The notes under the pieces: generated by a model
Seen by the model: only the letters and a program-made list of their open reading frames with translations
Told to the model about the DNA's origin: nothing
Database searches by the model: none
In this document: positions 51,201-64,000 of the stretch, in pieces
How positions within the stretch are numbered: the first letter of the stretch is position 1
Layout of the letters: every line of letters begins with the position of its first letter
Assembly (NCBI GenBank): GCA_021158055.1
Contig: JAGGVJ010000040.1
Coordinates: forward strand, 4,114-68,113
From: Candidatus Iainarchaeum sp.
GTDB taxonomy: Archaea > Iainarchaeota > Iainarchaeia > JAGGVJ01
DNA: 64,000 nucleotides
Reading direction: 5' to 3'
Position numbers and translations under genes: made by a program

Positions 51201-53557
51201 TCCTGCGTGCATTCAACCGTATTTTGCGTCACTGAAAATTCAACGGGTGTGGTGGCTGCGTAAAGCGGCTGTTTTCCTTCAGAGTCAATCAAAGTTCCAA
51301 GTTCTTCGTCAAACGGGCTTCTTTCCATGCCGCCCAGGTTTATGTAAGTCCAGCCCCTGAAATTGAATTTCACTCTCTCGCCCAAAACCACGTTGTCTTT
51401 CACCTGAACTGCAAAGTCCACAACATGCGTTCCTTTCCCGACATCTTTTCCAACCACCTGCACCCACTTGTTCATCTGTCCTGAAAGCGTGGTTCCTGCC
51501 ATGTCAATATCCTGTCCAAGCGGGGGGTTGTGGGTCGTGCCTGAAGACGGTTCTCCCATCGCCTGCATCACTCCCGTGATTGCAACATTGTCTTTTGCTG
51601 AAAAGTCGTTTTCTTCAAGGCCTGTCATCAAAAACAACCCTGCCTCGTCTGACGCGGCGGCCGTGTTCAACGCGACTCTTGCGCGGTACTGCTTGCTTTC
51701 AACAACGCTTTCTACCCTGTTTCCGAACCTGTCGAACAAGCCGATGAAAACCGCGCCCGTGGAATCCGCGGGGCTGAAAAGCTGTACATCTATGCGGTTT
51801 TCTTTTGAAGAGTCAATGTTTATGACATGGGAAAAGTATTTTGCGCTGCCAGGCGATTCAACGACTGCGTAAGCCTGTATGCCTTCAACAACGTCAAACT
51901 CGGCAACCCCATTTGAATCCGTGACAGTCGGCGACGAAAGCTCTTTGCCTAAAACCGTTGCCGCATTGTCAAATAAAATCACGCTTGCTCCTGAAACCGG
52001 GTTTTCTTCTTTTGTCACTTTGACCGTGACTTTTGTCTGCGTTGCGCTTATGTCAATCATTGGTTCCTGCGTGGTCGGAGTTTCCACTGGTTTTGCCACT
52101 CCGACTTTGGAGCCGACGTATGCCTTTGCAATGACTGTCTTGTTGTTCGGAACGTCGCTGAACTCCGCGCAACCGCTTGAACCGGTCAATTCTGACGGGA
52201 TTCCCAGCACTTTTGACGCAGTCTCAAAAAGAACAACCGGCACACCGTTTAACGGTGCCTTGGTGTCTTCTTCGCGGACACACACTCTAAGGGTTGATGT
52301 ATTTTCCTTGGTTGACAGCTCCATTGAAGCCAAAACTGATTCCCCTGCCCCGACATCTGTCCTGACAAACGGGACATAGTTGCCTGAGTAGACAGAAACC
52401 ATGTATTTTTTTGACTTGTCCACAAGAACTTTTCCTGTCCCGTCGATGTCCTGCGATTTCACGAGAACGCCGTCCAGATAAACGTTTACGGCTGCTTCAA
52501 GGGGTGTTCCGGTCATGGTTCTTGCAGTGACGTTTATAAAGTCGCTGTTTGCAAAATCAGCTGTTGAAATAATCATTTCAAGTTTGTTTTCAGCGTTTGA
52601 AAGGACCTGAACGGCTTTTTCAGTCTGGCTCAAGTACTCTTCTTTTGACACCGTCACGTTGTAAAGTCCTGGTATCAGCCCTCTTAAAACTGTTTTTCCG
52701 TCAACGTCGGTCTTTTCAGAAGACGCGAGTTCTGCAACGCCTTTTGGGCGGGCTTCAACCTCCGCTCCTTCAACTGCATCGCCGTTTATGTCTTCAATGT
52801 AAACCAGTAAATCTGCAGGTTCGCTTTCATCGGCTTCAAGGCTTATGGAGAGCTCCTGGTCTGAGTTGAACGTGAATGTTTCGCTTTTTTCCTGATAGCC
52901 CGGGGATGTGAAAACAAGGTCAATGTCTTGTCCCTGCGGAACTATCGCTTCAATTACCCCGTTTTCTTTTATGGTGTATGTTCCAAGGTCTTCTCCTTCT
53001 TTCATTACCTTGACTGTGCCTTCCCTTACAATGCTGTCAAAATCGGTTGTGACTCTCATCACTACTTTCACGTTTGTTTTTTCAAGTTTTGAAAGCGAAA
53101 AATCCTGCTGAAGCGAAGTGAAATAAAAGGATTTGTCAAGGGTTTCGTAGTCATACTTTGTTATCTCTACTGTGCCGTAACTATTGAGCTTGTCGAAATT
53201 TTCTATTGTTGCAATTCCTTTTGAATCGGTTTTTCCGATAAACGAGCTTAAGGTATCCGGGTAGGTTATCCTGACATCAGCCCCTTCAATGGCTGCTCCT
53301 GTTTCCGCATCAACGACTTTTACCTGAAGCGTTCCAGAGGCGGGGGTGCCAAGCATGAAAAACGCGACAAGCCCAATGAAAAAAATCGTCAAAAATAACG
53401 GGAAAACAGGTATGTTCTTGTCTTCAAGCGCGTCTATTACGCGGTAAACAGGGATTCCGTGGTCATCCACAAAATCCATCAAACCAAAAAACTTGTTTTC
53501 CACGCCGTAATAAAAGTCGTTCAAATTGTCTTTAACTGACTTGGATGCCAACTTCAT
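45260..53557 (-). CDS. Giant N-terminally anchored surface protein (2765 aa); paralogous architecture to 38389..44628, with (DYDSHY)n repeat and C-terminal coiled coil
   Basis: N-terminus LNDFYYGVENKFFGLMDFVDDHGIPVYRVIDALEDKNIPVFP + TM, colinear with the N-terminus of the 2079-aa protein. CarbopepD_reg-like repeats (TLQVKVVDAETGAAIEGADVRITY...). HYDYDS tandem repeat. ~450-aa coiled coil. C-terminal LMSWNPAGAGASAG motif shared with the other giant. Confidence 0.8.
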   Translation of the reverse strand: MKLASKSVKDNLNDFYYGVENKFFGLMDFVDDHGIPVYRVIDALEDKNIPVFPLFLTIFFIGLVAFFMLGTPASGTLQVKVVDAETGAAIEGADVRITYPDTLSSFIGKTDSKGIATIENFDKLNSYGTVEITKYDYETLDKSFYFTSLQQDFSLSKLEKTNVKVVMRVTTDFDSIVREGTVKVMKEGEDLGTYTIKENGVIEAIVPQGQDIDLVFTSPGYQEKSETFTFNSDQELSISLEADESEPADLLVYIEDINGDAVEGAEVEARPKGVAELASSEKTDVDGKTVLRGLIPGLYNVTVSKEEYLSQTEKAVQVLSNAENKLEMIISTADFANSDFINVTARTMTGTPLEAAVNVYLDGVLVKSQDIDGTGKVLVDKSKKYMVSVYSGNYVPFVRTDVGAGESVLASMELSTKENTSTLRVCVREEDTKAPLNGVPVVLFETASKVLGIPSELTGSSGCAEFSDVPNNKTVIAKAYVGSKVGVAKPVETPTTQEPMIDISATQTKVTVKVTKEENPVSGASVILFDNAATVLGKELSSPTVTDSNGVAEFDVVEGIQAYAVVESPGSAKYFSHVINIDSSKENRIDVQLFSPADSTGAVFIGLFDRFGNRVESVVESKQYRARVALNTAAASDEAGLFLMTGLEENDFSAKDNVAITGVMQAMGEPSSGTTHNPPLGQDIDMAGTTLSGQMNKWVQVVGKDVGKGTHVVDFAVQVKDNVVLGERVKFNFRGWTYINLGGMERSPFDEELGTLIDSEGKQPLYAATTPVEFSVTQNTVECTQEICMNYGFSRAITGEEIKDLTASEAYLSAVYSLGIEVQAKQDLEDLQVEILNSDASLDFVSYHYLGTQTQLDDEAHALAVNLESLGKNRGTGLEAVFVPTAENNSASVKIIVKRSGEVLIEKELFLKVVAGLGLSVFVEPEMAVAGEKTQFMITVLRAGDFEAVTDATIKLVNNIGKPLGNKTITITGKDKRNRGRNGVYATTIEPASGVIAVNVSADHFAEETILVRVGKEAAIAIDEDPFVIEIPLNIKTATKQLAIKNSSSKKLTDLQVVVERDEGFPDDDFSLELDDASITRLLGPGETTYLTFTSGYFPDSTDSASAEATIKIFAVKDNEYVTAQGRIKLLYAPKIDAQVIAECLEVTPSQTEFVVGSEDLDTAFNSMEVVLKNNCGIDLSNIVAYSSNDLDGGIFVLDCNGNQVIEGTGEEESTVIELLSADSLSGENKATVLVTFQADTLDDSENNAEDDDVVGTLVFRGENGSQDVSGELDYAVVFLDEAAALDVENKVKLKLKAGESLDILDGNAEKLVLKNRGSVTFKNIRISEKAEDWEINPNIYVNYLSETEASSTIDELEPEDTTHFEIEVDASGYSGEAGRMTGTLVIDADVYYKNKPGKVTSVSREVGLIVEIVPEEEGCLKVISSESIDFVSTTAYFDEIKSSVVIKNECGKRITRFVDFIPLNDFRLYIDFSEGSKRSLFDGETAQFDFRLKRVSKRAAIVSDSFQKGVFIAGETSSDTEILSELIMINVEIGSDLKTSDFTTEYLVHSCDPDIGITKTVSIPTKAGLSGDCSDGYCDGMQAAEYVIEKADRFMDKILTAFEGKKIRDIGCGSSKRNICTFEELLQSGLVPQDDWILNGVDLFLMDDRVTLEALKRAKTNVVSRYFNGQIVSGDYREMVNSGRISTGGDIYYDYDSHYDYDSHYDYDSHYGYDSHNDYDSHNDYDSEELLRKCGWYKVKFKPVFFARDGEIGSQFSIFVETSYVGETAACEGNALHMSTLLPWDNLSSEDAAEMKNTVFVIPKNEEDSFKGIVEEIASGLSGTELDYNLLEKDGRVKTSLDVVGGKNVVKLLFRDSANLTKEESELVDILNKDIGYPAYGVIHHDVSKFGSNIFELVIDKNALGDSSEDLNKSIGTAVSAFVEIASGAKPIGCYFGSQSTSKREGDRAKIDSFVITGLTEAPLNAKDAGRNECVFANGNWKIILPEFEGRVEVDKDGRTLIVKDAEALASLIACECTAALISFDTGTGIYGGYKIKYTGEDFTKDVFRDKIHNLRDKENEPAWATCVADVDEKFWGSTFSSDFWGESMLTDDCHSCRPEIRWSGLMTTEDGNEKVMKGDDGVKLRMNIEIKESPTINTCPAMNSACTIVTGVAVARGGAALMSWNPAGAGASAGLFVADQLVDFLVVDEILKVGFDHMAYKNKFKEAGEGFTDISTLTRSPYYTPMIAAGITAGPTAAGAICSYKKLGEEVVESSGKLKKVKGALAQPFRRLYPAIRQFKIQRAVASQVLEPDALDSSGKQLKLLVLGNKNYLDNYNIKKEIAESYKNAAGKWSKYADTLDEIARLEDDISKLDGKVAGLTKERDAILAGMKIDTAGMGDDLVYKAHLDALDTVNKEIDDSKKALKDVLDNLSKTKPAELDVKGLESAFKNANDTMNLNMEQVKGIEETITQNRAALNDLSPRLDDAGHLFKQNKQVLLEGIDEFMTAPGDTLDDMDRKFITDFRDMVNKGDDPAKLADAVSEIKGNSAFSNLTMGYDSALDNVLTSLSDFKKIEIDTSNLKKGIQTLEQGKTNLVKETGELNKLSGDIVKTMDASNKELTVRRELLKEVKDTQKMFSEFEAERVENLKKVNEQFENVWKLQGKIEGGALGKEKLLETQNELTARKGQLETDLRSLADEGVNFSDEGDDVTDALLKNTEKHSEFVAKSNEMTKGVEETEKKLESLKKVKRINPLGSAAIAGACWALDVYIAQHDNCIVTFEEV

Positions 53558-53729: not shown

Positions 53730-55526
53730 TTAACAACTTTCGCTTGCTGAGCCGGTGCACATGTCACACGACGATACTGACATGAAGTTGTCAACACACT
53801 GGAGATCAAGCCCTTCAACATAAGGCAACGTGCTCCTTGTTGCCCCCTTCCATTCTTCCTTGAGGTCTGCCCTTACACTGTCACTTACACTGTTTTCCCT
53901 TGCCAGTGAAACGCAGAACACAAACGGGACAGAAATGCCCCCGTCATCGGATGTCGTTGAACTCATCGGGGCTTCCATCGGGTGATAAATAATCTGGTTT
54001 TCTTCCGGTTCAAAATGAGTTGTCCCGTAACCCCCCGGTATTCCAAACCCCTTATCCACAATGGTAAAACAGGCATAAGCAGCTTCCGGAACCTGCGCGC
54101 AAAGCGCCGGCTTCAGGTTTACCTGGTCTCCAAAAGGATTTGAAATAATGCCTGATTCAGGGTACTGCACATAAGAAGTGCTTCTTGAGCACCCGTCAAA
54201 AACACCTGCTCCGTTGTCAACAGTGTACCTGAAGTACTTTGTGGGGAAAACCACTTTTTCAAGGAAACCTAAAGAATGCCTGTTTTTACTTGAATTCAGC
54301 CCTTCGCGAATAAAAAACTGCGCGCCTGAAAAAACACCATCAATTTTCCCCCTGTACTCAAGAGTGTCAAAATACAACGGCGCAAATTCAATGTTGCCGG
54401 CACTTGACTTCAGTTCCGAATTATTGCCTGAAAGAACACCCCCTATTTTTTCTGAAACACTGTCCATGTAACTTTCGGCAGTTATCTCGCCTGAAGCATA
54501 AACATCGTCGTATTCTGAATCAAGGCATTTTCTTTCAAAATCCGTTTCAAAATACGGGGGGGTTTTGGGGTCATAGTGCACCCACACCGGCAAAGAAACT
54601 TCCGAAGAATCCGAAACAGCCACTGAAATTTCTTTTGTGCAGTCAAGCCGTGATTTTTTTCCAAAATACTCTGCTTCACCATAAATTTTGCAATCCACAG
54701 GATAATCCGACCCCCTCGTCATGCAATCGCATCCCTGTGCGCCTGTTGATTCCAGGTCGCACAAGCCCCACGGTTTTATTTTACCAGGCCCCTCCAGATT
54801 CAGAATTTCGTCCTGGATCGCAAAGGCAATGTCTGCTGCTTTCATAAACCTTATCGGAACAGGGACAATCAGGCTTCCCTCCGGGATCACAGAACTGACG
54901 CTTTCTTCCCCAGTGAGATTGTTTGTCATGACTATCCGCGCAATCTCATCGTTGCTTAAGTCGGCCGGGGGCTTTATTTCCACTGCAAACGAACCGTCTT
55001 TTGAACTGAAACAATCATCTGGAAAAACAAAAATATTATATCTTGTGAGGCTGCCGACCAATCCAATACTATAGTCCCCGATATTTACAAGGTGTTCTGA
55101 ATCAGTATCTTTAAACTCTCCAACCACGTCAAAAACGCTTGAAGTCATATTTGTCAATAAACTTGTCCTGACACCGGATTCAAAAAAATCCTTCACGACC
55201 GTGCAAAAAGTGCCGCGGTCAGTTGAAACAAAAATGGCTTCTTCAAGGTCGTTGTTAAAATACTTCTTCAAAAACATATTGTGGGTCTGGGCCTTAAACT
55301 GAAAAATCACCGTGTGAATCGCATCCATCCTTGCAAAATCAAGAGTCGCCGACTCCTTCAGAGAAGACTGGTAGTCAACAATGACACTGACCCTGTTTTT
55401 TTCAGTGTTTATTATGTTTACTATCATTACAAGAGCAATTACAAGAATCACCATCCCGACAAGCGGGGTAAACAATGTAAACCCTTTTTTCATCTTTTGC
55501 GACACTGACATACCAGGCAACCAGGT
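53730..55526 (-). CDS. Large (~598 aa) cysteine-rich protein with class III (prepilin-like) signal peptide; candidate filament-associated adhesin
   Basis: From ATG at 55526: MKKTWLPGMSVSQKMKKG|FTLFTPLVGMVILVIALVMIVNII, a charged N-terminus, K-G, then a ~22-aa hydrophobic stretch, which is the archaeal prepilin pattern. More than 20 Cys. The listed ORF extends to 55802 only by reading through a 21-bp tandem duplication and would overlap the neighbouring gene. Confidence 0.6.
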   Translation of the reverse strand, partial: TWLPGMSVSQKMKKGFTLFTPLVGMVILVIALVMIVNIINTEKNRVSVIVDYQSSLKESATLDFARMDAIHTVIFQFKAQTHNMFLKKYFNNDLEEAIFVSTDRGTFCTVVKDFFESGVRTSLLTNMTSSVFDVVGEFKDTDSEHLVNIGDYSIGLVGSLTRYNIFVFPDDCFSSKDGSFAVEIKPPADLSNDEIARIVMTNNLTGEESVSSVIPEGSLIVPVPIRFMKAADIAFAIQDEILNLEGPGKIKPWGLCDLESTGAQGCDCMTRGSDYPVDCKIYGEAEYFGKKSRLDCTKEISVAVSDSSEVSLPVWVHYDPKTPPYFETDFERKCLDSEYDDVYASGEITAESYMDSVSEKIGGVLSGNNSELKSSAGNIEFAPLYFDTLEYRGKIDGVFSGAQFFIREGLNSSKNRHSLGFLEKVVFPTKYFRYTVDNGAGVFDGCSRSTSYVQYPESGIISNPFGDQVNLKPALCAQVPEAAYACFTIVDKGFGIPGGYGTTHFEPEENQIIYHPMEAPMSSTTSDDGGISVPFVFCVSLARENSVSDSVRADLKEEWKGATRSTLPYVEGLDLQCVDNFMSVSSCDMCTGSASESC

Positions 55527-55608: not shown

Positions 55609-56250
55609 TTACCTGTCCCTTGCTTTCTGCAAAAACTGTTTTGCCGAAAAACCTGCTTTTTCAAGCCAACCGATATACCTTTCAAGCCACCCAAGGTACC
55701 ATGCGGCATAAAACACAAACGTAAACACAAAAAGGCTTGCCCTGAAAAGCGTATTGTGGGTGAAATCCGCTGCTTCCCAGCCAAACCACACCCCGGTTGC
55801 AAGAGTCAATGCAATGCGGACCGGGTTAAACAAAAGAACTGCAAAAAAGCCAAGCCCCGCGCCGACTGCCCTGCTTTTCAGAGTCCTGTCAGTGCTTGAA
55901 AAGACAGCCGCAAAAAGAACAGCTATTTCAAGGTCGCCTGAGCAAATCCTTGAAATCACTGCCGTGAACGGGTAAAACAGGTCAGAAAAAATCAACGGCG
56001 CAGCCCCTGAAAAAATACCGGGCGTCATTTCTGCCCTGATTCCCAAAACCGCAAGCACTGCAACTGCAGAAACCGCGCTGAATGCCTGCAAAAGAGGGGT
56101 GAGCAAAAGGGAAATCAAAAACGAGACCGCTAAAAAAAGAACTGAAAATAATGCCGTGAACTTTGCTGCCCGGATTAACTCAAAACGAAGAATATTTATT
56201 GGAATACGCACTTTTTTCACCTTATGGGTGAAATGGATAAGGGCAAACAT
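55609..56250 (-). CDS. Exosortase/archaeosortase-family membrane protein (213 aa, short form)
   Basis: Polytopic membrane protein with SRICSGDLEIAVLF (the family's conserved C-S-G active-site Cys region) followed ~38 aa later by FNPVRIALTL (conserved N-x-x-R) and then H (FTHN). The ATG at 56250 overlaps the ATPase start head-to-head, so one of the two starts is probably misplaced. Confidence 0.55.
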   Translation of the reverse strand: MFALIHFTHKVKKVRIPINILRFELIRAAKFTALFSVLFLAVSFLISLLLTPLLQAFSAVSAVAVLAVLGIRAEMTPGIFSGAAPLIFSDLFYPFTAVISRICSGDLEIAVLFAAVFSSTDRTLKSRAVGAGLGFFAVLLFNPVRIALTLATGVWFGWEAADFTHNTLFRASLFVFTFVFYAAWYLGWLERYIGWLEKAGFSAKQFLQKARDR

Positions 56251-58518
56251 GTAATTAAAAGTGAGGGTGGCAAAAAAACCCTTGTAATCGATTACAGGAA
56301 CTCAAAAACCGGGGCAGACATCGCAGAATACGCCGACTGCATGGAACAAGTGCTCTCTCTTTTGAGAACAAACGACGCTGACTTAGTGGTTTTGGCTGAC
56401 CTGTATGAAAGGGTCTACGACGAAAAGCAGACAAAAATGCTCAAAGAAATAGCTGACCTGGCAAATTTGTTTGAAACAGAAAACCTTTGGGGCTACACAT
56501 ATCTCGGAAACGTAAAAACAGAAAGCGAAGTGACTTTAAGCGAGAGGCACAACCTGGTGGTCAAAATTGCCCACGACCTGCTTTTGCGCGACCCGATAAA
56601 GGCATACCTGACTCTTCTTGACACCCTGAAAAAAGAAAAAATGAGAGCAAACGCAGGAGGAAAAACCTATCCCGTCGTGTTCCTGAAAACACTGGTGTTT
56701 GTCAAAAACAAGCTTGAGGCAACCAATCTTATTTCCGTCACAAAAAACCTGATTTTAAGGCTTCACAAAGTCCCGACGGGACGAGGTTTTTATCACTCGT
56801 TTTTTGACGCGCAGATAAAGCCGTCTTTTGTGGGTTCAAGGCTTCTTTTCAAAACCGACGAAAAAGTTGAACTGGTTGACCAGTACAACGTTCTTGACGC
56901 GGAAGTGCGGGTCTACAGGCACCCTGAAAAAATCGCTTTAATGTATTACATCAACCCGCCCGAGTACTCGCTTTCGCCTGAAAAATACTTCATCTTGACA
57001 AAAACAAAAGAAGTCGTTGCAAAATACAGGCCCACAAACACAGAATTTTCAGATGCTTCCCAGTCAAGGAAATACTTCGAGCACATTTACCAGGCAACCA
57101 TAAACGACATTGCAAAAGAAAACAGCATTTCCATCTCACCGCGGGAAAAAGAAGCGCTTGCAAAAATAGTGGCGCGCTACACAATCGGCTACGGCGTGCT
57201 TGAACTCCTGTTGTCTGACAGGAAACTGACAGACGTTTACCTTGATGCGCCTCTCGGAACCAAACCTATTTATGTTGTTCACGGCGAATACGGGCAGTGC
57301 CAGACAAACGTAATCTTCACAAACGAAGAAGCCCGCTCAACAGTATCCCGGCTCAGGGCGCTTTCAGGCAGGCCTTTTGACGAAGCCCACCCTGTCATGG
57401 ACTTTAACCTATCCTCGCTCCAGACAAGGGTCGCAGTCATCGGCCAGCCCCTCAGCCCGCACGGCATAGCGTTTGCGTTGAGGCTTCACAAGACCACTCC
57501 CTGGACTTTGCCCCAGTTCATTGACGCGCACATGATTGACCACCACACAGCAGGCCTTTTGAGCTTTCTCGTGGACTCAAAGGCATCCATGCTCATAACC
57601 GGCTCAAGGGGTTCGGGAAAAAGCTCCATGCTTACCGCGCTCATGCTTGAGATCCTTCAAAACCTGAGAATCATCGTCCAGGAAGACACCCTTGAAATTC
57701 CCGCGCCGTACCTCAAAAGCATCGGCTACAACATCCAGCAGCTCAAAACCCAGAGTGCGATTTCCGTGGGAAGAACCGAAAACGAAGTAAGCCCTGACGA
57801 GGCATTGAGAACAGCGCTTCGTCTGGGTGACTCTGTCCTGATCGTGGGTGAAGTGAGATCAAAAGAAGCAAGAGTGCTTTACGAGGCAATGCGTATCGGC
57901 GCGGTGGGAAACGTTGTCATGGGGACCATTCACGGCGAAAGCGCTTATTCCGTGTGGGACAGGATTGTAAACGACCTTGAAGTGCCGAACACTTCCTTCA
58001 AGGCAACCGACATGGTCCTTGTCCAGGCCCCTGTTAGATTCAAGGGCTCGCTCAAACGGCACAGGAGAGTAATCCAGCTGACTGAAGTGAAAAAGCACTG
58101 GCAAAACGACCCTGCCGCAGAAGAGGGGCTTCTTGACCTGCTCTCTTTTGACGCTTCAAAAGACGGGTGGGACCTGTTAAAGGACAACTTCAAGGACTCC
58201 GAGTACTTCCCGAAACTCAAGCGCACAACCGGCATGAGCATTGAGGAAATATGGAAGGACATAAAACTGCGCGGAGAATCAAAAAAATACCTTGTCGACT
58301 CAAAAAACAAATTTGAAATCCCTGCTCTTCTGGAAGCCGAAAACACTGTTCCGATGAACAACAAATTACTGCTGATGGCTGAAGAAATGCGCAAATCCGG
58401 CGGAGGCATGGACTACGACAAGCTTCTTGAATCATGGAAAAAATGGGTTGACAACCGGTATGTGAAAGAAATAATTGCAAAAAAAAGGCTTGTTTCAACA
58501 CGTAAAATCAAAAGGTGA
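56224..58518 (+). CDS. Type IV pilus/archaellum-type secretion ATPase (FlaI/TadA/GspE/VirB11 superfamily) with ~250-aa N-terminal extension
   Basis: 764 aa. Walker A LITGSRGSGKSSMLTAL, Asp/Walker B box SVLIVGEVRSKEA and His box VVMGTIHGESA. Typical family members are ~450-550 aa. Confidence 0.85.
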   Translation: MGEMDKGKHVIKSEGGKKTLVIDYRNSKTGADIAEYADCMEQVLSLLRTNDADLVVLADLYERVYDEKQTKMLKEIADLANLFETENLWGYTYLGNVKTESEVTLSERHNLVVKIAHDLLLRDPIKAYLTLLDTLKKEKMRANAGGKTYPVVFLKTLVFVKNKLEATNLISVTKNLILRLHKVPTGRGFYHSFFDAQIKPSFVGSRLLFKTDEKVELVDQYNVLDAEVRVYRHPEKIALMYYINPPEYSLSPEKYFILTKTKEVVAKYRPTNTEFSDASQSRKYFEHIYQATINDIAKENSISISPREKEALAKIVARYTIGYGVLELLLSDRKLTDVYLDAPLGTKPIYVVHGEYGQCQTNVIFTNEEARSTVSRLRALSGRPFDEAHPVMDFNLSSLQTRVAVIGQPLSPHGIAFALRLHKTTPWTLPQFIDAHMIDHHTAGLLSFLVDSKASMLITGSRGSGKSSMLTALMLEILQNLRIIVQEDTLEIPAPYLKSIGYNIQQLKTQSAISVGRTENEVSPDEALRTALRLGDSVLIVGEVRSKEARVLYEAMRIGAVGNVVMGTIHGESAYSVWDRIVNDLEVPNTSFKATDMVLVQAPVRFKGSLKRHRRVIQLTEVKKHWQNDPAAEEGLLDLLSFDASKDGWDLLKDNFKDSEYFPKLKRTTGMSIEEIWKDIKLRGESKKYLVDSKNKFEIPALLEAENTVPMNNKLLLMAEEMRKSGGGMDYDKLLESWKKWVDNRYVKEIIAKKRLVSTRKIKR

Positions 58519-58522
58519 AAAA

Positions 58523-60730
58523 GTGCGCGAAAGAAAAAAACAAAACCAGGCAAACAGAAAAACCCGCGACACCGAAAACATTGATGTCAAGCTCCCGGGA
58601 TCACTGATTTACGGGGAGCGCGAAACAGATCCGGTCACAAAAACCGCTGATTCAAAAAAACCAGGAAAAAGCGGTTTTGTGAAATTCTGCAAGTGGAGCT
58701 ACAGGCGCATAAAATCAAAAAACTCCAAATTTGACGAAAAATACAGGCAGGCAATTGACTTTCTCGGCTGGAACCTCACTGCAGACGAGTTTGCTTCAGG
58801 ACAGAAAATGTCTATGGTCCTTGGTTTTGCATTGTCTGCAGTGATTGGACTGTGCGCATCCTACTTTGGCCTGATTTCATTATCAGGCGGCATTTCAATG
58901 GACAATCTTCCATTCCTTGGCATGCTTGCGGTGATTCCGATGGCCGCTTCGGCGATGGTTGTCAAAATGCCTTTAAACGCTGCCGAAACAGAAAAAATGA
59001 ACTCCATGACTTACGTTCCTGAAATCGTAAATTACCTTGTCATGAGCATGAAGCTGTCGCCAAACCTTGAAAAGGCAATCCAGTTTGCTGCAGAGCACGG
59101 GCGGGGAAAGATCGCCGACGATTTCAAAAAGCTGTTGTGGGACGTTGACATCGGAGTATACAACACTGTTGAGGAAGGCCTTGACGACCTCGCGTACAAA
59201 TGGGGGGACTACAGTTCTGTCCTGAAACACGCCTTGATGCAGATTCGCGCTTCAGTGATTGAGGCAAACGATGCAAGGCGCCTTGCGTTGCTTGACAAGG
59301 CGGTAGCCGATGTCATTGAAGGAATCAAGGCGGAAATGAGCACTTACTCGCGAAAACTGCACGCGCCCGCGATTTACCTTTATTACCTCGGGGTCCTCCT
59401 GCCGCTTATGCTTGTGATCATCCTGCCTATCGGCTCCGTGTTTACCGGGGCAGGCCTTGCTGACAGGAACCTCTTGTTTGTGCTCTACAACATAATCATA
59501 CCGACAGCCACTTTCCTTTTTGCAAGAAACCTCCTCAAAAAAAGACCCCCGACTTACACCCCGCCGGTCATCCCCGATGACTTTCCGGGAATCCCCCCAA
59601 AACACAAGTTGTTTTACGGGAAAAACAAAAAAACATTCCCTGTCCTGGCACTTGCAATAATTGCTGCTTTGGCTGTTCTCCTGTTTTCATTCATGGCAAA
59701 CAACACAATTACTCAGCTTAGCTTTTCAGGCACCGACTTTGGCATCGACCCTTTTCACATGGTCACGCTTGAAGAGGCAAAAAACAACATCTGGGGAACT
59801 TTCAACGACACCGGGTTTGAATGGGGCGGAATAAAATATGTCACTCCGATCTGGATGATCTACGGAGTTCTTTTATCGGTTGTTTCCTTTATTTCAGTTT
59901 ACCTTTACTTTGACTCAAAATACAAAAAAGAAGCCCAAGACCACATCAAAAAACTTGAGGACGAATTCAACGACGCGATTTACGTGCTTGCCTCAAGGCT
60001 CGGTGAAAACAGGCCCATGGAAGAAGCCCTTTCCCACTCTGTCAAGTTTTTGGGTCCGGGTTCTCTTGTCGGGACCGAGATTTTTGCAACAATCACCAAA
60101 AACATATCAATGATGGGCCTGACCTTGCGATCCGCAATCTTTGACTCAAATTACGGGGCGCTGAAACATGTTCCCTCCAACCTGATCCAAAGCGCAATGA
60201 CCATCTTAAGCGACTCGGTAGAGCTCGGGACAAACGTTGCGGCGCGCTCGATTATGTCTCTTTCCTCGCAGATCCGGGATTCAAAGAAAATCGACGAGAA
60301 CTTGCGCAAAATGCTTGAGGATCTGACTTCCATGATGAACTCAATGGCGATAATGATTGCCCCCATGGTTCTTGGAATCACCACCGCGCTGCAGAAAATC
60401 GTGCTGAATGCCCTGACCAATATCACAAAAGCGACAAGTCCTGGCGGAGCGAGCGCTGCAATGGGGACAGGCGGAATGGGCAATATGCTCTCAGGCGCAG
60501 GCAGCGCCCAGCAGGCAGCAAACATAATCAACCCCACTGATTTCCTTTTGATAATCGGGTTTTACGTGATTGAGCTTGTCATCATTTTGATGTATTTCAC
60601 CATGAACATCCAGGAAGGGGACAACAAAATAATAGTCAAGATGGCCATTGCAAAAATCCTGCCTGTTGCAATCATATTTTTCATAATAAGCACTCTTCTT
60701 GCAAACAATTTGATAGCAAACGCGGGTTGA
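58523..60730 (+). CDS. Type IV filament platform membrane protein (TadC/FlaJ/PilC-like, T2SS-F type), unusually long
   Basis: ~735 aa. Cytoplasmic basic N-terminus then many TM helices. Immediately downstream of the ATPase and upstream of the pilin genes. The listed ORF starts at TTG 58475, inside the ATPase. GTG 58523 (5 bp after the ATPase stop) or ATG ~58810 are alternatives. Assignment rests mainly on context and topology. Confidence 0.6.
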   Translation: MRERKKQNQANRKTRDTENIDVKLPGSLIYGERETDPVTKTADSKKPGKSGFVKFCKWSYRRIKSKNSKFDEKYRQAIDFLGWNLTADEFASGQKMSMVLGFALSAVIGLCASYFGLISLSGGISMDNLPFLGMLAVIPMAASAMVVKMPLNAAETEKMNSMTYVPEIVNYLVMSMKLSPNLEKAIQFAAEHGRGKIADDFKKLLWDVDIGVYNTVEEGLDDLAYKWGDYSSVLKHALMQIRASVIEANDARRLALLDKAVADVIEGIKAEMSTYSRKLHAPAIYLYYLGVLLPLMLVIILPIGSVFTGAGLADRNLLFVLYNIIIPTATFLFARNLLKKRPPTYTPPVIPDDFPGIPPKHKLFYGKNKKTFPVLALAIIAALAVLLFSFMANNTITQLSFSGTDFGIDPFHMVTLEEAKNNIWGTFNDTGFEWGGIKYVTPIWMIYGVLLSVVSFISVYLYFDSKYKKEAQDHIKKLEDEFNDAIYVLASRLGENRPMEEALSHSVKFLGPGSLVGTEIFATITKNISMMGLTLRSAIFDSNYGALKHVPSNLIQSAMTILSDSVELGTNVAARSIMSLSSQIRDSKKIDENLRKMLEDLTSMMNSMAIMIAPMVLGITTALQKIVLNALTNITKATSPGGASAAMGTGGMGNMLSGAGSAQQAANIINPTDFLLIIGFYVIELVIILMYFTMNIQEGDNKIIVKMAIAKILPVAIIFFIISTLLANNLIANAG

Positions 60731-60738
60731 TCTCAAAA

Positions 60739-61221
60739 ATGAAAAAAACAACAATGCCTGGTTTAAGAGGACAGGAATTTGACATTTTCAAAATACTTCT
60801 CGCAGTCGCTTTCGCGCTTGCCTTGACTGCCATACTTTCCGGTTTTGTCAACAGCTTGTGGGACGAGACCTGTGAGTTTGACAGCAACAAGATAGTGAGC
60901 GCAATCCACGCGGCAAAAGCTGTTCCTGGAGAGGTTTTGAAGATTGAAGACGTCTGCTTTAACAAGGGGAGCAAAATCACTGCCGAATCTTACGCGATTC
61001 AGGCAAAGCTTGTCGGGCGCGACGGGGGATGCATAAAATTCAGCGGCTGCCCAAAACAGGCAACGTGCCCGAACGAATTTGAAGCAGAATTCAACGCAAG
61101 CAACACAAAAGACTTTTTCGTTGTGTGCGGGCGAAGCACTGACCCCGTGTGTGTTTTCGAGCTTCCTGAAAGCGAGTATTATGTGTCGGGATGCACGATT
61201 TACCTTGACGGAAAACCCTGA
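60739..61221 (+). CDS. Pilin-like protein with class III signal peptide (160 aa, Cys-rich)
   Basis: MKKTTMPGLRG|QEFDIFKILLAVAFALALTAILSGF is a prepilin-type N-terminus. 8 Cys in the mature part. Confidence 0.7.
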   Translation: MKKTTMPGLRGQEFDIFKILLAVAFALALTAILSGFVNSLWDETCEFDSNKIVSAIHAAKAVPGEVLKIEDVCFNKGSKITAESYAIQAKLVGRDGGCIKFSGCPKQATCPNEFEAEFNASNTKDFFVVCGRSTDPVCVFELPESEYYVSGCTIYLDGKP

Positions 61222-61395
61222 CAAAAAAACAATAACAATAAATAATATCAAACACAATTCAGTATTCACTAAGAATATTAATCAAATCCAGTATTTGCTA
61301 AAAATATCAATCAATGTCAATACACTAAAATATTACAAAAATATTAAGATATTATCAAAAAAGATATTATAAAAATCTTCAGAAAAGGTGATTCA

Positions 61396-61821
61396 ATGAA
61401 AAACGCTTTGAAAGGACAGGCATTCGACACATTCAAACTGTTGATCGCGGCAATTGTTGCGATTTCCATTCTTGGGGTGATGATGGGAATTATCGGCGGC
61501 ACAACACTGCCCGGTTCAGACCCGAACCACGAGATAAAGAGCAAATTAAGCAGCGCAGTGATAAACGCCGGAAACACCGTGACCACATCCACAATAAAAT
61601 TCAAATTCGGTGACACCTACTGCATCACGGCCTTGAAAGGAAACTCGGGCCTTGACGACGACCAGATTGATTTTGACGTTCAGCACAACGGAATAGAAAT
61701 AAGCCCGGATGACTCCAAATGCATACAGGCAAAAAGCACTGATGTAAACGGGAGAGCAGCAATCAAATGCGACCCGAGCACCGCCACGTGCACAATAACA
61801 ATCAAACCGGCATTGAACTGA
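61396..61821 (+). CDS. Pilin-like protein with class III signal peptide (141 aa)
   Basis: MKNALKG|QAFDTFKLLIAAIVAISILGVMMGI, the same GQxFDxFK(I/L)L motif as the preceding gene. 5 Cys. Confidence 0.7.
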   Translation: MKNALKGQAFDTFKLLIAAIVAISILGVMMGIIGGTTLPGSDPNHEIKSKLSSAVINAGNTVTTSTIKFKFGDTYCITALKGNSGLDDDQIDFDVQHNGIEISPDDSKCIQAKSTDVNGRAAIKCDPSTATCTITIKPALN

Positions 61822-61876
61822 AGCGAAAGCTTGAACAAAACTGAAGCAAAAGCTTAACAAAAAAGAGGTATGAAAA

Positions 61877-62176
61877 ATGAAAAAAGGAGACAGCTCATGG
61901 GGTGCGCTTTACCTGTTGATTGTGCTTGTGATTGCAGCCGTGCTCATAACCACTGTAATAAAGCCCATGTTCAGCCAGTCGCAGGAAGCCGTGACTTCAA
62001 AAAAACTCCCTTCCTCAATGGGATTGATCGGACTGGCTGCCGTTTTCAGCAAAAGGCAGGAAAACACTGTTCTGGAAAAGCGCGCTGAAGACACAAGCAC
62101 ACCCCCAAAAAAAAACCTTGTTCAAACCTGTTTCACAGCATTTTCAAGTGTGCCAAATGCCAGCGCACAAGGGTGA
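61877..62176 (+). CDS. Small pilin-like protein (99 aa), possible minor pilin
   Basis: MKKG|DSSWGALYLLIVLVIAAVLITTVI hydrophobic N-terminus after K-G. Weaker match than its neighbours. Confidence 0.45.
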   Translation: MKKGDSSWGALYLLIVLVIAAVLITTVIKPMFSQSQEAVTSKKLPSSMGLIGLAAVFSKRQENTVLEKRAEDTSTPPKKNLVQTCFTAFSSVPNASAQG

Positions 62177-62180
62177 ACCG

Positions 62181-62756
62181 ATGCGCCGCCTGCACGGACA
62201 AGAAGAAGCGCCGATTGAGCTTCTGGTCGGGATAATCATGTTCATAATGGTCTCTGTCCTTGCCATCCAGGTAACGACAAGCATAAACAATTCCATCTGC
62301 AGCGAAAAACTGAACAAGGCACAGATTGACATTTCCTCAAACCTCAAAAGTGCGCTTACAGGCTCAGAATTCACTGTGCAGACCTTTTCGGTTGACATCC
62401 CAAGCTGTCCTGAAAAAAAAATAAAAAGCCTGAACATAGAAAAAATAACCGACCCCAACATCTGCCAGATTTACTGCCGGCCGACCAAAAACACCTGCTG
62501 GATGACAGTGCTTGAAGTGCACGGCGAAACAGAAGGGGAAATAGAAAAAGAATTCATGTGCATCAACATCTCGCCTGAAACAGAAATAATCCCGGAAGAC
62601 GACGAAGACCTGTGCAACTGGGACAAAATGAGGCAAAAAACAGGCATAACAAGCACAACACCTCTTGAGCAGTTAAACCTGGGCCCCGCCTACTACAAAT
62701 TCACTTTCAAAAGAGACACCGGAATGACCCCAAAAATAAAGGTGTGCATTGAATGA
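62181..62756 (+). CDS. Pilin-like protein with class III signal peptide (191 aa, Cys-rich)
   Basis: From the internal ATG: MRRLHG|QEEAPIELLVGIIMFIMVSVLAI. 8 Cys. The listed ORF start (62118) would overlap the previous gene. Confidence 0.6.
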   Translation: MRRLHGQEEAPIELLVGIIMFIMVSVLAIQVTTSINNSICSEKLNKAQIDISSNLKSALTGSEFTVQTFSVDIPSCPEKKIKSLNIEKITDPNICQIYCRPTKNTCWMTVLEVHGETEGEIEKEFMCINISPETEIIPEDDEDLCNWDKMRQKTGITSTTPLEQLNLGPAYYKFTFKRDTGMTPKIKVCIE

Positions 62757-63430
62757 AACTTGCCAAAAAACAACGCGGGATAATGCTCTGGACAATGTCA
62801 AAAATCACTTTGTTTATTTTCATGCTCGGCCTTGTCACTGTATTCTACCACTTCCTTATCTACACAAACACGATTACCCTGCAGGAAAACGCAAAAAACA
62901 CTGCAAAAAACATGATTTCAAAACTCGACGAAGTGCGCTTCAGCACCATGACCTGCAAAGAAGAAGTGATTCCCATTGATTACAGGTTTCGCGCAGGGGA
63001 AACCGACTTGTCTTACCTGATAAGAATTGAAAAAACAAAGCTAAAAATCGGAGATACGCAAGAGGAAAAAAGGCTTTCGGTTCAGATCAGAAGCTCAAAA
63101 GACAAAGAACTGCTTGGAGCATCAGACACGATGCTTGCGGAAAACGAAAAAATAAGCTTTTACAAATGCCCCTACAGATTCGGTTCGGCAGACGACGACT
63201 TCTTTTGCCAAAAGGAACTGGAAAAAAGCAATGGGAATGCATCACTTGACATCTACCCAAGTGAAAAAAACGAAAAAAACAACAATCTTCAAAGCTCTTA
63301 CATCATTATAAAAAAAGGATTTTTTAAAGGCGACGAAACAAAACAAGGGATTTGTGTCGTGGACTGTTTTGACACAGACCAGAGAACCTGCCTGAAAGCA
63401 ATAAGGACAGTTGATGCGTGTGAATGCTAA
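62753..63430 (+). CDS. Pilin-like protein with class III signal peptide (225 aa, Cys-rich)
   Basis: MKLAKKQRG|IMLWTMSKITLFIFMLGLVTVFY. 7 Cys. ATGA overlap with the upstream gene. Confidence 0.6.
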   Translation: MKLAKKQRGIMLWTMSKITLFIFMLGLVTVFYHFLIYTNTITLQENAKNTAKNMISKLDEVRFSTMTCKEEVIPIDYRFRAGETDLSYLIRIEKTKLKIGDTQEEKRLSVQIRSSKDKELLGASDTMLAENEKISFYKCPYRFGSADDDFFCQKELEKSNGNASLDIYPSEKNEKNNNLQSSYIIIKKGFFKGDETKQGICVVDCFDTDQRTCLKAIRTVDACEC

Positions 63431-63998
63431 AAGCCAAAAGCCAAAGACTCCAAAGGGGTTTATCGGACCGATTGGTTTTGACCTGCCAAGCATAATGCCA
63501 ATCGTTTTTGCCATAATAGTTTTTTTCAGTGCCGTGAGCTACTCGTACACCACCGTGAACGAAAAAAACAACGTTCTTGACTCAATAGAATCATCCATCA
63601 AAATAGCCGATATCTTAAAAGGAAACTCTTACCTGTTCTTCGACGCCACAGATTCAGGCGCAAAAAACAAGTTTGCCTCAAACTGCGAAAAAGCAGTTAA
63701 CATTGCGCAGTCAAAAAACATAAACTTCGCGGCCACTTTTGTAAAGCTTGACTCAAGCTCAAGCATTGAATGGCTGATTGAAAACAAGGAAAGCGAAATT
63801 GACTCCTGCACAACAGCAGACGGCAAACACCTTTGCTGGTGCGGCTTTTCCCCAAAAAAATTTGATTCAAACCTGTCAAAACAATTCTGGAGCATTTCTT
63901 TTCCCGTAACAGTTGACGTAAAACCGCCCGGTTCCGGTCCGGAGGACATTTACCCGCAAAGTTACCTCAGGAAAATAATTGTGGTGGTGTGGAAGTGA
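63414..63998 (+). CDS. Pilin-like protein with class III signal peptide (194 aa)
   Basis: MRVNAKSQKPKTPKG|FIGPIGFDLPSIMPIVFAIIVFFSAV. 5 Cys. The stop codon falls at the window end. Confidence 0.6.
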   Translation: MRVNAKSQKPKTPKGFIGPIGFDLPSIMPIVFAIIVFFSAVSYSYTTVNEKNNVLDSIESSIKIADILKGNSYLFFDATDSGAKNKFASNCEKAVNIAQSKNINFAATFVKLDSSSSIEWLIENKESEIDSCTTADGKHLCWCGFSPKKFDSNLSKQFWSISFPVTVDVKPPGSGPEDIYPQSYLRKIIVVVWK

Positions 63999-64000
63999 TT

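Follow-up and report, generated by a model that had tools for sequence, protein, structure and literature searches.

Gene content and conservation of the locus

The window (the whole stretch of DNA analysed, 64,000 nucleotides) carries six small genes in succession (g1-g6), all on the plus strand at 60739-63998, as originally located, and immediately 3' of genes encoding a secretion ATPase and a polytopic platform protein, followed by the start of a seventh (g7). These genes and their neighbours are listed below, with an arrow at the putative processing point and the basis of each assignment in parentheses.

53730..55511, minus strand: Cys-rich protein of 593 aa (16 Cys) with a prepilin-like N-terminus, MSVSQKMKKG↓FTLFTPLVGMVILVIAL (sequence; called in all related contigs)
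55609..56220, minus strand: membrane protein of the exosortase/archaeosortase family, 203 aa, its gene divergent from that of the ATPase (NCBIfam TIGR04178)
56224..58518, plus strand: secretion ATPase of the FlaI/GspE2/CpaF type, 764 aa (Pfam, NCBIfam and PDB profile matches)
58523..60730, plus strand: polytopic platform protein of the TadC/FlaJ/PilC (T2SSF) type, 735 aa (hydrophobic segments, Pfam matches of orthologues)
60739-61221, plus strand: g1, pilin-like, 160 aa, 8 Cys, RG↓QEFDIFKILLAVAFALAL (ORF, BLASTP, HMMER)
61222..61395, plus strand: AT-rich spacer of 174 nt; its GGTGA ribosome-binding site lies five bases upstream of the g2 ATG
61396-61821, plus strand: g2, pilin-like, 141 aa, 4 Cys, KG↓QAFDTFKLLIAAIVAI (family search, AF2 model)
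61877-62176, plus strand: g3, small pilin-like or membrane protein, 99 aa (orthologues in 14 other loci)
62181-62756, plus strand: g4, pilin-like, 191 aa, 8 invariant Cys, HG↓QEEAPIELLVGII, with GGTGA five bases upstream of its ATG (alignments A4 and A6, hhalign, PDB profile, AF2)
62753-63430, plus strand: g5, pilin-like, 225 aa, 8 Cys, RG↓IMLWTMSKITLFIFMLGLV (alignment A5, position)
63414-63998, plus strand: g6, pilin-like, 194 aa, 4 Cys, KG↓FIGPIGFDLPSIMPIVFAIIVFF (alignment A8)
63989..64000 (start 63989/63995), plus strand: start of g7, which runs off the window; 231 aa, RG↓QASFFDALTFLLIV (complete in locus L001, 12594/12600-13295)

Identical proteins in NCBI (MCD6230089-98) are titled 'MAG: Candidatus Diapherotrites archaeon' (Iainarchaeota, DPANN). 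The gene order ATPase, platform, g1, g2, g3, g4, g5, g6, g7 recurs in about 12 independent metagenomic loci (L001, L007, L010, L012, L018, L019, L020, L049, L060, L078, L083 and L084), with an ATPase identity of 51-58%; g1 orthologues sit right after the platform gene in related loci. In L001, identical to the window save for 1 base in 12,605, the g7 gene is complete; the original prediction had not noticed this gene. Among 51 related ATPase loci, the platform gene is directly downstream of the ATPase gene in only 21 (~40%). Junctions within the operon are at most 55 nt long or overlapping, apart from the g1-g2 spacer, which from its sequence may contain an internal promoter for g2.

The ATPase matches T2SSE of Pfam (2.5e-19), FlaI and TadA of NCBIfam (7.7e-41 and 1.1e-38, both under the equivalog cut-offs) and, in the PDB, Archaeoglobus fulgidus GspE2 (2oap, 1.3e-31), FlaI (1.8e-22) and CpaF (9e-21), the PDB matches covering residues ~290-630 only; it carries an extra N-terminal region of ~290 aa. 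The platform protein has at least nine hydrophobic segments; the copy in the window matches Pfam T2SSF at an E value of 0.025 only, and 19 of 23 orthologues match this family (best 2.4e-6).

The 593-aa protein encoded upstream on the opposite strand, which the original prediction had missed, belongs to no Pfam or NCBIfam family and is a candidate pilus-associated adhesin. Large proteins at the equivalent position in other loci begin with [KR]G↓FST(I/L)LL or A↓QGTIEYLVI, and the conserved neighbours of the operon include large prepilin-like proteins and giant surface proteins bearing Ig-like and CarboxypepD_reg domains. The exosortase-family protein scores 33.8 bits against TIGR04178 (cut-off 23), bears the NCBI title 'exosortase/archaeosortase family protein', and belongs to a family in which the conserved Cys is present in 44/44, the Arg in 42/44 and the His in 43/44 sequences; of the 59 loci with enough upstream sequence, 30 have a copy no more than 2.5 kb upstream of the ATPase gene. 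In agreement with the original statement, no prepilin peptidase gene was found in the window, its polytopic ORFs being without an A24 match in Pfam or NCBIfam; nor was one found in the 10-kb flanks of related loci, where the GxGD membrane proteins are presenilin-type SPP. Absence of the peptidase from a pilin locus is the norm in archaea and not an anomaly.

N-terminal pattern, cysteines and families of the small proteins

All of the small proteins start with a brief basic leader whose last residue is G (A in the g3 family), after which come about 20 hydrophobic residues. For g3-g6, the claim of K/R-G before a hydrophobic stretch holds as to the G and the stretch in all four, but g4 of the window has HG. 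A crude rule to gauge chance ([KRH][GA] and then, within 8 residues, 17 strongly hydrophobic residues, in the first 60 aa) selected 7 of 46 non-overlapping ORFs of the window, five of them in the small-gene cluster, where g1 went uncounted, being masked by a longer antisense ORF; the two outside the cluster, among ~40 other ORFs, both encode polytopic membrane proteins. Six pilin-like genes in a row are therefore far beyond chance. In the g2 and g4 families, conservation is highest in the ~25 residues that follow the G (3.7-3.8 bits per column, versus ~1.2-2.6 in the remainder of the protein), with the G nearly invariant and the following Q invariant in both; such a peak is the opposite of the pattern expected of a discarded Sec signal peptide. 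No pilin or class III signal model of Pfam or NCBIfam is matched by any of the seven.

BLASTP aligns g1 and g2 over 66 N-terminal residues (27% identity, E 2e-6), and because local HMMER iterations seeded with either one converge on 55 hits in 22 loci, the two are read as one family (motif [KR]G↓Q(A/E)F(S/D/E)xF(K/Q)LLIAA), of which g1 is the short 'g1-type' branch. The N-termini originally quoted (LRGQEFDIFKILLAVAFALAL in g1, LKGQAFDTFKLLIAAIVAI in g2) are exact and have G-Q-x-F-D-x-F-K-x-L in common; they agree at ~9 of 17 positions, and so display a shared motif and not the 'almost identical' processing region that was claimed. The g2 family comprises 496 representative clusters (E<=1e-3), every named member being from Diapherotrites, with the consensus [KR]GQAF[SD][VT]F[KQ]LLIAA[IV]VA and no sequence relative of g2 in Pfam or PDB. 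The g2-type protein is the most likely candidate for the major subunit: its family is very large, paralogues occur in several loci, and the gene is preceded by an AT-rich spacer of its own.

The N-terminus of g4 reads HG↓QEEAPIELLVGIIMFIMV in the window, with [KR]G in orthologues (family motif [KR]G↓QE.APFELL). Its profile aligns with the g2 family in hhalign (82.6% probability, E 1e-5, N-terminal 67 columns), and its best four PDB matches, PilE1 (8pfb, E 0.01) and Geobacter PilA-N among them, are without exception type IV pilins, with alpha1-N as the aligned region and marginal E values (0.01-0.24). One g4 homologue has the UniRef title 'Class III signal peptide-containing protein'. The AF2 models of g2 (pLDDT 89.6; helices 8-34 and 43-56, then eight beta strands) and g4 (pLDDT 82.2; a 49-residue helix, 12-60, then a beta sheet) are 'lollipops' in which a long N-terminal helix packs on a beta-sheet head; Foldseek found no pilin and no significant match to either among PDB structures.

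The g3 orthologues in 14 other loci (E 1e-14 to 1e-22, 50-72 aa) have the consensus [RK]A↓QSEW(S/N)S(V/I)YMLIVLIIAALLLI..KPMFKQSQ and the family motif [RK]A↓QSEW..Y.LI; g3 of the window begins with KKG↓DSSWGALYLLIVLVIAAV. Orthologues of g5 begin with MLG↓F(I/T)LSK(L/M)NLLILV and have four conserved Cys (alignment A5); the window copy was assigned to this family by its position between g4 and g6, because HMMER failed to link it. In the g6 family (motif KG↓F(L/I)GPIGDDLPSLIP), alignment A8 has K14, G15, F16, G18, I20, G21, D23, L24, P25, S26, P29 and two cysteines, C91 and C141, invariant, and the g7 family (alignment A9) has [KR]G↓QAA(V/I)TDALYFLLIV and two near-invariant Cys. By hhalign, no homology was detected of g3, g5, g6 and g7 to g1, g2 or g4 or among themselves, and their profiles have no PDB match. 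Demonstrable mutual homology is limited to g1, g2 and g4; the other four are putatively pilin-like by N-terminal pattern and operon position only.

The products of g1-g6 contain 8, 4, 1, 8, 8 and 4 Cys, respectively, so the claim of 5-8 in every mature domain is false for g2, g3 and g6; g3 orthologues have none. The eight Cys of g4 (C40, C76, C95, C99, C106, C127, C145 and C189 in alignments A4 and A6) are invariant across 42 homologues at ~22% identity, and in 153 proteins, almost all of the g2 family, the number of Cys is even in 148 (six in 78 proteins, four in 49, two in 13, eight in 6 and ten in 2) and odd in five. Because the Cys are invariant and even-numbered across homologues, disulfide-stabilised heads are likely, and the prediction to this effect is well supported indirectly. 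A lipoprotein-like exported protein of the same organism (212 aa) has 15 Cys.

Proposed assembly and alternative readings

The six small genes and g7 very probably encode the pilins and minor pilins of a TFF/T4P-like operon for an archaeal type IV filament. The pilin-like identity first proposed for the six is supported by the T2SSE-type ATPase and T2SSF-type platform genes that precede them, with which the g2 and g4 models and the g4 profile agree. Precursors would enter the membrane via the hydrophobic segment, and a class III (A24, PibD/EppA-type) signal peptidase encoded elsewhere would cleave after the G, so that five of the seven families would have Gln at +1, like EppA substrates of Methanococcus. 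The ATPase and platform protein would pull the subunits out of the membrane and build the filament core from their stacked N-terminal helices, with heads held by one to four disulfides. The single-copy genes g1 and g4-g7, in fixed order, and perhaps the tiny g3, may encode minor pilins that initiate assembly or make up a complex at the tip or base, as do bacterial GspH-K or FimU-PilVWX.

It is possible, if rather doubtful, that the filament subunits are g1, g2 and g4 only and that g3, g5, g6 and g7 are bitopic membrane proteins for assembly or anchoring, functional analogues of PilN/PilO or FlaF/FlaG in which the [KR]G is not cleaved. For these four families, resemblance to g1/g2/g4 was detected in the hydrophobic stretch only; g5 orthologues, starting MLG, are nearly leaderless, the g6 motif is rich in proline and glycine, unlike pilin alpha1-N, and g3 orthologues are merely 50-72 aa long. 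However, leaders of only three residues are known among archaeal class III signals, tiny Flp pilins of ~50 aa are genuine filament subunits, bacterial minor pilins are also unrecognisable by sequence beyond alpha1-N, and a G just before the hydrophobic segment that is invariant in g6 (with K14) and near-invariant in g7 would be odd for a plain anchor.

An unlikely reading is that the machine is real but makes no long adhesive pilus, the seven pilin-like proteins instead forming a short pseudopilus or DNA-uptake or secretion piston (T2SS- or Com-like), a periplasm-less stalk that moves cargo by push or pull. Seven distinct families in fixed order and mostly single copy are closer to GspG-K/ComG than to a simple major-pilin locus, Pfam and NCBIfam showed no adhesin domain in the small proteins, and DPANN archaea, with their reduced biosynthesis, could gain from uptake of DNA or nutrients. 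Against this, the neighbours are without a nuclease, ComEC or DNA-binding match in Pfam and NCBIfam, the conserved Ig-like and CarboxypepD_reg surface proteins nearby fit adhesion, and the characterised archaeal T4P-like systems, archaellum and bindosome aside, all make adhesive pili (PMC6098224).

It is highly improbable that the six are Cys-rich surface proteins of an ordinary kind, Sec-secreted or membrane-anchored, that happen to lie beside a secretion ATPase and have a coincidental K/R-G: no curated pilin model was matched, and Cys-richness alone is no pilin marker because other exported proteins of the organism (the 212-aa and 593-aa proteins) are Cys-rich too, but the hydrophobic segment is the best conserved part and extends into the 49-residue helix of the g4 model, the G and Q are conserved as described in g2 and g4, the fixed operon after ATPase and platform is repeated in ~12 loci, and the pattern is rare elsewhere in the window.

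Relation to known filament systems

For the type IV filament reading, the closest counterparts include the predicted 'dark matter' T4P islands of DPANN (Makarova, Wolf & Koonin 2019, PMC6393860, Fig. 2A; PMC4858521), in which genes for a secretion ATPase and a TadC-like protein precede several for small unannotated signal-peptide proteins, unrecognisable but predicted to be fast-evolving pilins. The prediction there is general, whereas here there are seven families with motifs, invariant cysteines, order and models. The survey of Makarova, Koonin & Albers (2016, PMC4858521) makes no mention of Diapherotrites, and genomes of this group have been reported to have T4P (PMC8561730).

The Epd pilus of Methanococcus maripaludis (archaeal TFF 'system 1') likewise has an ATPase, a platform and several different pilin genes in an operon. 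Its pilins, reportedly, in work of Szabo and colleagues from 2007, have Gln at +1 after the cleavage-site Gly. Epd pilins are glycosylated and not Cys-rich, and the small proteins here have 0-2 sequons each. The Epd locus has its own peptidase, EppA, and two platform genes, whereas the present locus has one 735-aa platform gene and no peptidase, and the Pfam Class_IIIsignal or QxSxExxxL signature is unmatched. Archaeal TFF system 1 has been reported in some DPANN (bioRxiv 10.64898/2026.04.22.720090).

Cys-richness had been called unusual for archaeal pilins, but there is precedent in the T4P loci of Thermoproteales (clades 4D/4E), in which 'almost all components contain multiple, conserved cysteines' (Makarova et al. 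2016, PMC4858521) and disulfides are expected; the pilus of Pyrobaculum arsenaticum has a pilin with cysteine bonds. That is an unrelated hyperthermophilic lineage of Thermoproteota with other pilin families (arCOG03739/03740), to which no sequence relationship of the proteins here was detected. The bacterial Tad/Flp pilus is comparable in its CpaF-related ATPase (E 9e-21) and in having, as here with g3, a very small protein beside larger pilin-like ones, but g3 is without the G↓xxxxEY Flp motif, no secretin or other Tad component was found, and the context is archaeal. The bacterial GspH-I-J-K (T2SS) and FimU-PilV-W-X-E (T4aP) sets are also single-copy, mutually dissimilar genes in fixed order in one operon, with similarity confined to the N-terminal helix and each differing in the pattern of charged residues near +5; by this analogy, with no detectable homology, g4-g7 may make up a complex for priming or at the tip.

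This kind of system is already known, and its subunits here would be unnamed, lineage-specific, disulfide-rich pilin families in a tiny uncultured archaeon of Diapherotrites, within DPANN. The filament would likely serve for attachment to surfaces or host cells, as expected for a DPANN archaeon.

Operon layout and related loci

The six small pilin-like genes g1 to g6 follow the ATPase and platform genes on the same strand, and the operon continues beyond the end of the window, where a seventh gene, g7, is read from the related contig L001, which matches the window at all but 1 of 12,605 bases.

Pilin-like genes of the operon (window coordinates, strand, product)
60739-61221, plus strand: g1, 160 aa
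61396-61821, plus strand: g2, 141 aa
61877-62176, plus strand: g3, 99 aa
62181-62756, plus strand: g4, 191 aa
62753-63430, plus strand: g5, 225 aa
63414-63998, plus strand: g6, 194 aa
past the window end, seen in L001: g7, 231 aa, 2 Cys, N-terminus RG↓QASFFDALTFLLIV (here and below, ↓ marks the presumed leader cleavage point)

The gaps measure 8 nt between the platform gene and g1, 174 nt between g1 and g2, 55 nt between g2 and g3, and 4 nt between g3 and g4, followed by overlaps of 4 nt (g4 and g5) and 17 nt (g5 and g6). The sole long gap, a very AT-rich spacer (61222-61395), carries a ribosome-binding site, GGTGA, and, about 20-35 nt 5' of the g2 ATG, A/T-rich stretches that resemble a TATA box; judging from these features, it may provide g2, the putative major pilin, with an internal promoter of its own. 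The N-termini quoted for the small genes in the original prediction match the sequence exactly, and the run of six genes is not a chance grouping: a crude rule for class III-like signals (a basic residue, G or A, and a strongly hydrophobic 17-mer within 8 residues) selects 7 of the 46 non-overlapping ORFs of the window, five of them in the cluster, where g1 is hidden from the count by a longer antisense ORF, and two outside it, both encoding polytopic membrane proteins.

Identical proteins are deposited in GenBank (MCD6230089-98, 'MAG: Candidatus Diapherotrites archaeon'), with the ATPase and an exosortase-like protein named and the platform and all seven small proteins labelled 'hypothetical protein'. 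Scanning genome contigs with the ATPase gave a single true relative, L007 (a Candidatus Iainarchaeum MAG, ATPase 58% identical), and scanning metagenomes with a two-sequence ATPase alignment gave 80 loci with ATPase identities of 39-64%. With families assigned by local HMMER and gene position, the genes run ATPase, platform, two or three copies of g1/2, g3, g4, g5, g6, g7 in L001, L007, L010, L012, L018, L019, L020, L049, L060, L078, L083 and L084; L043 carries them too, in a rearranged order. Minus-strand genes of L007 (7488-10295), for a Bro-N domain protein, an MNT/HEPN pair and a PIN-domain protein, break its operon between g1 and g4 and look like mobile or toxin-antitoxin insertions. In a more distant lineage (L087 13302-21218, and L085), with an ATPase 39% identical, the locus likewise opens with the ATPase and platform, and these are followed by some eleven N-terminally anchored proteins, both small and large. 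Three of them measure 55-67 aa, and two others, of 719 and 467 aa, contain 48 and 51 Cys, respectively.

Probable pilin character of the small proteins

A class III-like signal pattern, consisting of a short basic leader, G or A, and a hydrophobic helix, is conserved in all seven families and is matched by no curated model: Pfam and NCBIfam scans of g1-g6 and g7 gave nothing meaningful and no pilin or class III match, the Pfam model PF04021 (Class_IIIsignal, of the QxSxExxxL type) being unmatched by g1-g6 (E<=1) and by g7 (E<=0.01). Presumably a strict FlaFind pattern would fail on such N-termini, which would account for the 'hypothetical' labels.

N-terminal consensus of the seven families
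g1 and g2: [KR]G↓Q(A/E)F(S/D/E)xF(K/Q)LLIAA(I/V)VA
g3 orthologues: [RK]A↓QSEW(S/N)S(V/I)YMLIVLIIAALLLI..KPMFKQSQ
g4: [KR]G↓QE.APFELL(I/V)AV
g5: MLG↓F(I/T)LSK(L/M)NLLILV
g6: KG↓F(L/I)GPIGDDLPSLIPLLFAL
g7: [KR]G↓QAA(V/I)TDALYFLLIV

Gln at +1, common to g1, g2, g4, g7 and the g3 orthologues and so to five of the seven families, recalls the substrates of EppA. The g1/g2 family has two branches, a short g1-type (G(Q/E)FEPFKMLIGAI, ~150 aa) and a g2-type (~180 aa). An exhaustive HMMER search with the g2-family profile recovered 496 representative clusters at E<=1e-3, of which 294 also pass E<=1e-10; the named members sampled all come from Diapherotrites or Iainarchaeum and carry the label 'hypothetical'. 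The 42 homologues of g4 are likewise all from Diapherotrites, one of them being labelled 'Class III signal peptide-containing protein' in UniRef.

The g3 protein is 50-72 aa long in 14 orthologues of other loci, as against 99 aa in the window and a close strain; the window copy stands apart by a C-terminal extension, probably a lineage-specific read-through, which bears a second short hydrophobic stretch, LPSSMGLIGLAAVFSKRQ. This tail has a very weak PEP-CTERM resemblance (Pfam E 0.64), but a PEP-CTERM-like signal was rejected as a feature of the family, the entire extension being missing in orthologues. The orthologues have the size of Flp/Tad pilins but the motif [RK]A↓QSEW..Y, not G↓xxxxEY, and the Flp family is absent among the Pfam matches of g3. 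The g5 motif is similar to the bacterial G↓FTLIE but has Lys where Glu5 stands; a role as a PilN analogue, suggested by 'LNLL', was discarded, as the motif lies inside the transmembrane segment and no PilM-like gene is present. It is possible, if rather doubtful, that g3 and g5-g7 are bitopic parts of some other kind that do not enter a filament: no pair of families other than g2 and g4 is significantly related in profile-profile comparison; on the other side, G is invariant in g6, and in g7 G is nearly invariant and Q invariant. The PDB searches with the g2, g5, g6 and g7 profiles returned only chance matches to hydrophobic segments.

The 764-aa ATPase matches Pfam T2SSE above cut-off (2.5e-19) and, in NCBIfam, FlaI (7.7e-41) and TadA (1.1e-38); its closest solved relatives are A. 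fulgidus GspE2 (1.3e-31), FlaI (1.8e-22) and CpaF (9e-21), with PDB matches confined to residues ~290-630. The platform is a polytopic protein of 735 aa, of which the window copy matches T2SSF below threshold (E 0.025) and 19 of 23 orthologues match, at best with 2.4e-6. The locus thus has both a secretion ATPase of the GspE/PilB/FlaI (T2SSE) family and a platform of the PilC/TadC/FlaJ (T2SSF) family, two marks of the type IV filament superfamily. A pseudopilus or an uptake machine in place of a filament is unlikely.

That no prepilin peptidase gene lies in the window is borne out, no member of the A24 family (PibD/FlaK/EppA) being present among its polytopic ORFs, nor was one found among those of the 80 related loci when all proteins with at least four transmembrane segments were considered. 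GxGD candidates in some loci proved to be presenilin-type SPP (PF06550), Na/Ca exchanger, TctA and similar proteins. Most archaeal genomes that encode the ATPase also have the peptidase gene, as a rule at a site unlinked to the pilus loci (PMC4858521), so its absence from a 64-kb window is uninformative.

The reading of the small proteins as pilins and minor pilins draws on conservation and models of g2 and g4. Column information, computed for 84 g2-family and 42 g4-family sequences, is maximal in the 20-25 residues after G (3.7-3.8 bits, compared with ~1.2-2.6 elsewhere); in both, Q after G is invariant and G invariant or nearly so. Confident AlphaFold2 models built on these alignments for g2 (pLDDT 89.6; helices 8-34 and 43-56, then eight strands) and g4 (pLDDT 82.2; a single helix 12-60, then a beta-sheet) show the 'lollipop' layout of pilins as predicted folds. 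The two families align with each other profile to profile over the N-terminal 67 columns (82.6%, E 1e-5), and in the PDB the g4 profile has type IV pilins as its best four matches (PilE1 8pfb, E 0.01; Geobacter PilA-N, 0.09-0.24), in alignments that cover alpha1-N and set FELL of the family against (I/V)EL(I/L) of the pilins; as sequence matches these are marginal but specific. Foldseek searches with the g2 and g4 models found no pilin. That the small proteins are unrelated secreted proteins is hardly credible, since a segment that is best conserved after G is unlike a discarded Sec H-region, even with no curated pilin model matched.

The original prediction gave every mature domain 5-8 cysteines, which is wrong for three of the six: the counts for g1-g6 are 8, 4, 1, 8, 8 and 4. 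Eight Cys are invariant in g4 across 42 sequences of only ~22% identity; in g5 three Cys are invariant and a fourth nearly so, g6 has two invariant Cys, g7 two nearly invariant, and the g3 orthologues none. Among 153 proteins, almost all of the g2 family plus two g1 homologues, there are 6 Cys in 78, 4 in 49, 2 in 13, 8 in 6 and 10 in 2, an odd number occurring in only five, and two variable Cys columns occur together. The even numbers and the invariance at low identity argue for heads held by structural disulfides. N-glycosylation sequons are few (0-2 per protein). Cysteine-richness is not specific to the pilin-like proteins: whereas Cys makes up 0-2% of the cytoplasmic proteins encoded in the window, there are 16 Cys in a 593-aa protein and 15 (7.1%) in a 212-aa lipoprotein-like protein (37734-38372, minus strand) with a lipobox-like start ..LLSGC, the latter showing that it is a general property of exported proteins of this organism and no peculiarity of pilins. 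Cysteine-rich components of archaeal type IV pili have already been described in Thermoproteales (PMC4858521; bioRxiv 10.64898/2026.04.22.720090).

An exosortase-family gene and large surface proteins

Several further genes that encode a candidate processing enzyme or large surface proteins lie near the ATPase gene here or in related loci.

Exosortase-family gene and large proteins
55609-56220, minus strand: exosortase/archaeosortase-family gene, divergent from the ATPase gene (TIGR04178, 33.8 bits, cut-off 23)
53730-55511, minus strand: 593-aa protein, 16 Cys, N-terminus MSVSQKMKKG↓FTLFTPLVGMVILVIAL
45260-53557 and 38389-44628, minus strand: giant proteins of 2765 and 2079 aa with CarboxypepD_reg, Ig-like and MG3 domains
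L042 3689-6472, L075 4495-7320, L043 8231-9898 and L030 3320-6073: large prepilin-like proteins of other loci

The gene at 55609-56220 is assigned to the exosortase/archaeosortase family by the signature model and by the conserved Cys (44 of 44 homologues), Arg (42 of 44) and His (43 of 44); the cut-offs of the named subfamilies (ArtA-E, Xrt) are not reached. It also occurs in L007 (769-1305, minus strand) and in 42 of the related loci, and in 30 of the 59 loci with enough upstream sequence it is no more than 2.5 kb upstream of the ATPase gene, a pairing that holds even in loci with no platform or pilin genes downstream. No paper that ties archaeosortases to type IV pili by genomic context came up in a literature search. 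When every ORF of the loci was screened for C-terminal tails of a transmembrane segment plus basic residues, as in sortase substrates, many anchored surface proteins were recovered, with no common motif. About 5 kb past the window end and the operon, L001 (15411-19766, plus strand) encodes a protein of 1451 aa that has a signal peptide of the Sec type and matches no Pfam domain. Its tripartite C-terminal tail, FPQEP-AMLALMLLAMLSSMLAI-RLKRTEGNK, resembles a PEP/PGF-CTERM sorting signal, so that the exosortase-like enzyme may have this protein as a substrate.

The exosortase-like gene is often flanked by large proteins of 550-970 aa that are rich in Cys, and by the giant proteins. The 593-aa protein of the window has the prepilin-like start KKG↓FTLFTPLVG, those elsewhere start with [KR]G↓FST(I/L)LL or A↓QGTIEYLVI, and several end in YC(K/R/G)(L/M/F)DP; none has a Pfam family except for two sub-threshold Class_IIIsignal matches (E 0.0097 and 0.032) in other loci. 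They are candidate pilus adhesins. The giant proteins share an N-terminal segment of ~45 aa (..FY...EDKY(F/Y)..LDFLD.KG(I/L)PVY..) followed by one transmembrane helix, and are found in 22 loci, 0.5-8 kb from the ATPase gene, mostly upstream and on the opposite strand, exceeding 3000 aa elsewhere. Elsewhere in the window, a further giant surface protein, secreted and of 1933 aa (22563-28364, minus strand), has four DUF2341 repeats, Laminin_G_3 and a fibrinogen-C-like segment, and the window starts with the housekeeping genes for EF-2 and an Rpb1-like subunit of RNA polymerase.

One reading of this pairing in Diapherotrites, in which a large prepilin-like protein and a giant surface protein are usually present as well, is that the exosortase-family Cys-Arg-His enzyme is part of the pilus system. 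On this reading, an improbable one, it would process or covalently anchor pilus-associated proteins and, at the extreme, take over the maturation of the atypical prepilins in a lineage where no A24 peptidase was seen near the loci. If true, this would be a new way to finish type IV filament subunits and the core of a DPANN host-attachment apparatus.

Proposed assembly and significance

As a type IV filament operon, the locus would most probably work as follows. The prepilin-like precursors would insert in the membrane, a PibD/EppA-type enzyme encoded elsewhere would cut after G, and the ATPase and platform would assemble the subunits, with the conserved N-terminal helices forming the filament core and the disulfide-locked heads lying outside. 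The g2-type protein is the best candidate for the major subunit, in view of its very large family, its paralogous copies in several loci and the 174-nt AT-rich spacer with GGTGA, and the single-copy, fixed-order g4-g7, together with g1, resemble a minor-pilin set.

Type IV pili have been reported in Diapherotrites genomes (PMC8561730), and gene context has led to the prediction of pilus islands in DPANN whose pilins are unrecognisable (PMC6393860). The system is of a kind already known and the concept of the archaeal type IV pilus is unchanged; the novelty lies in the definition of seven conserved families that had no annotation, each with its motif and most with invariant or nearly invariant Cys, in the tiny g3 and in the conserved neighbourhood. 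Standard pilin models overlook a family with hundreds of members. DPANN archaea are tiny, mostly host-dependent cells. The locus offers a lineage-wide parts list for a Diapherotrites surface filament, comprising seven pilin-like families, the ATPase and platform that would assemble them, and conserved neighbours; such a list could guide targeted metaproteomics, studies with antibodies or cryo-ET, and assays of heterologous processing.
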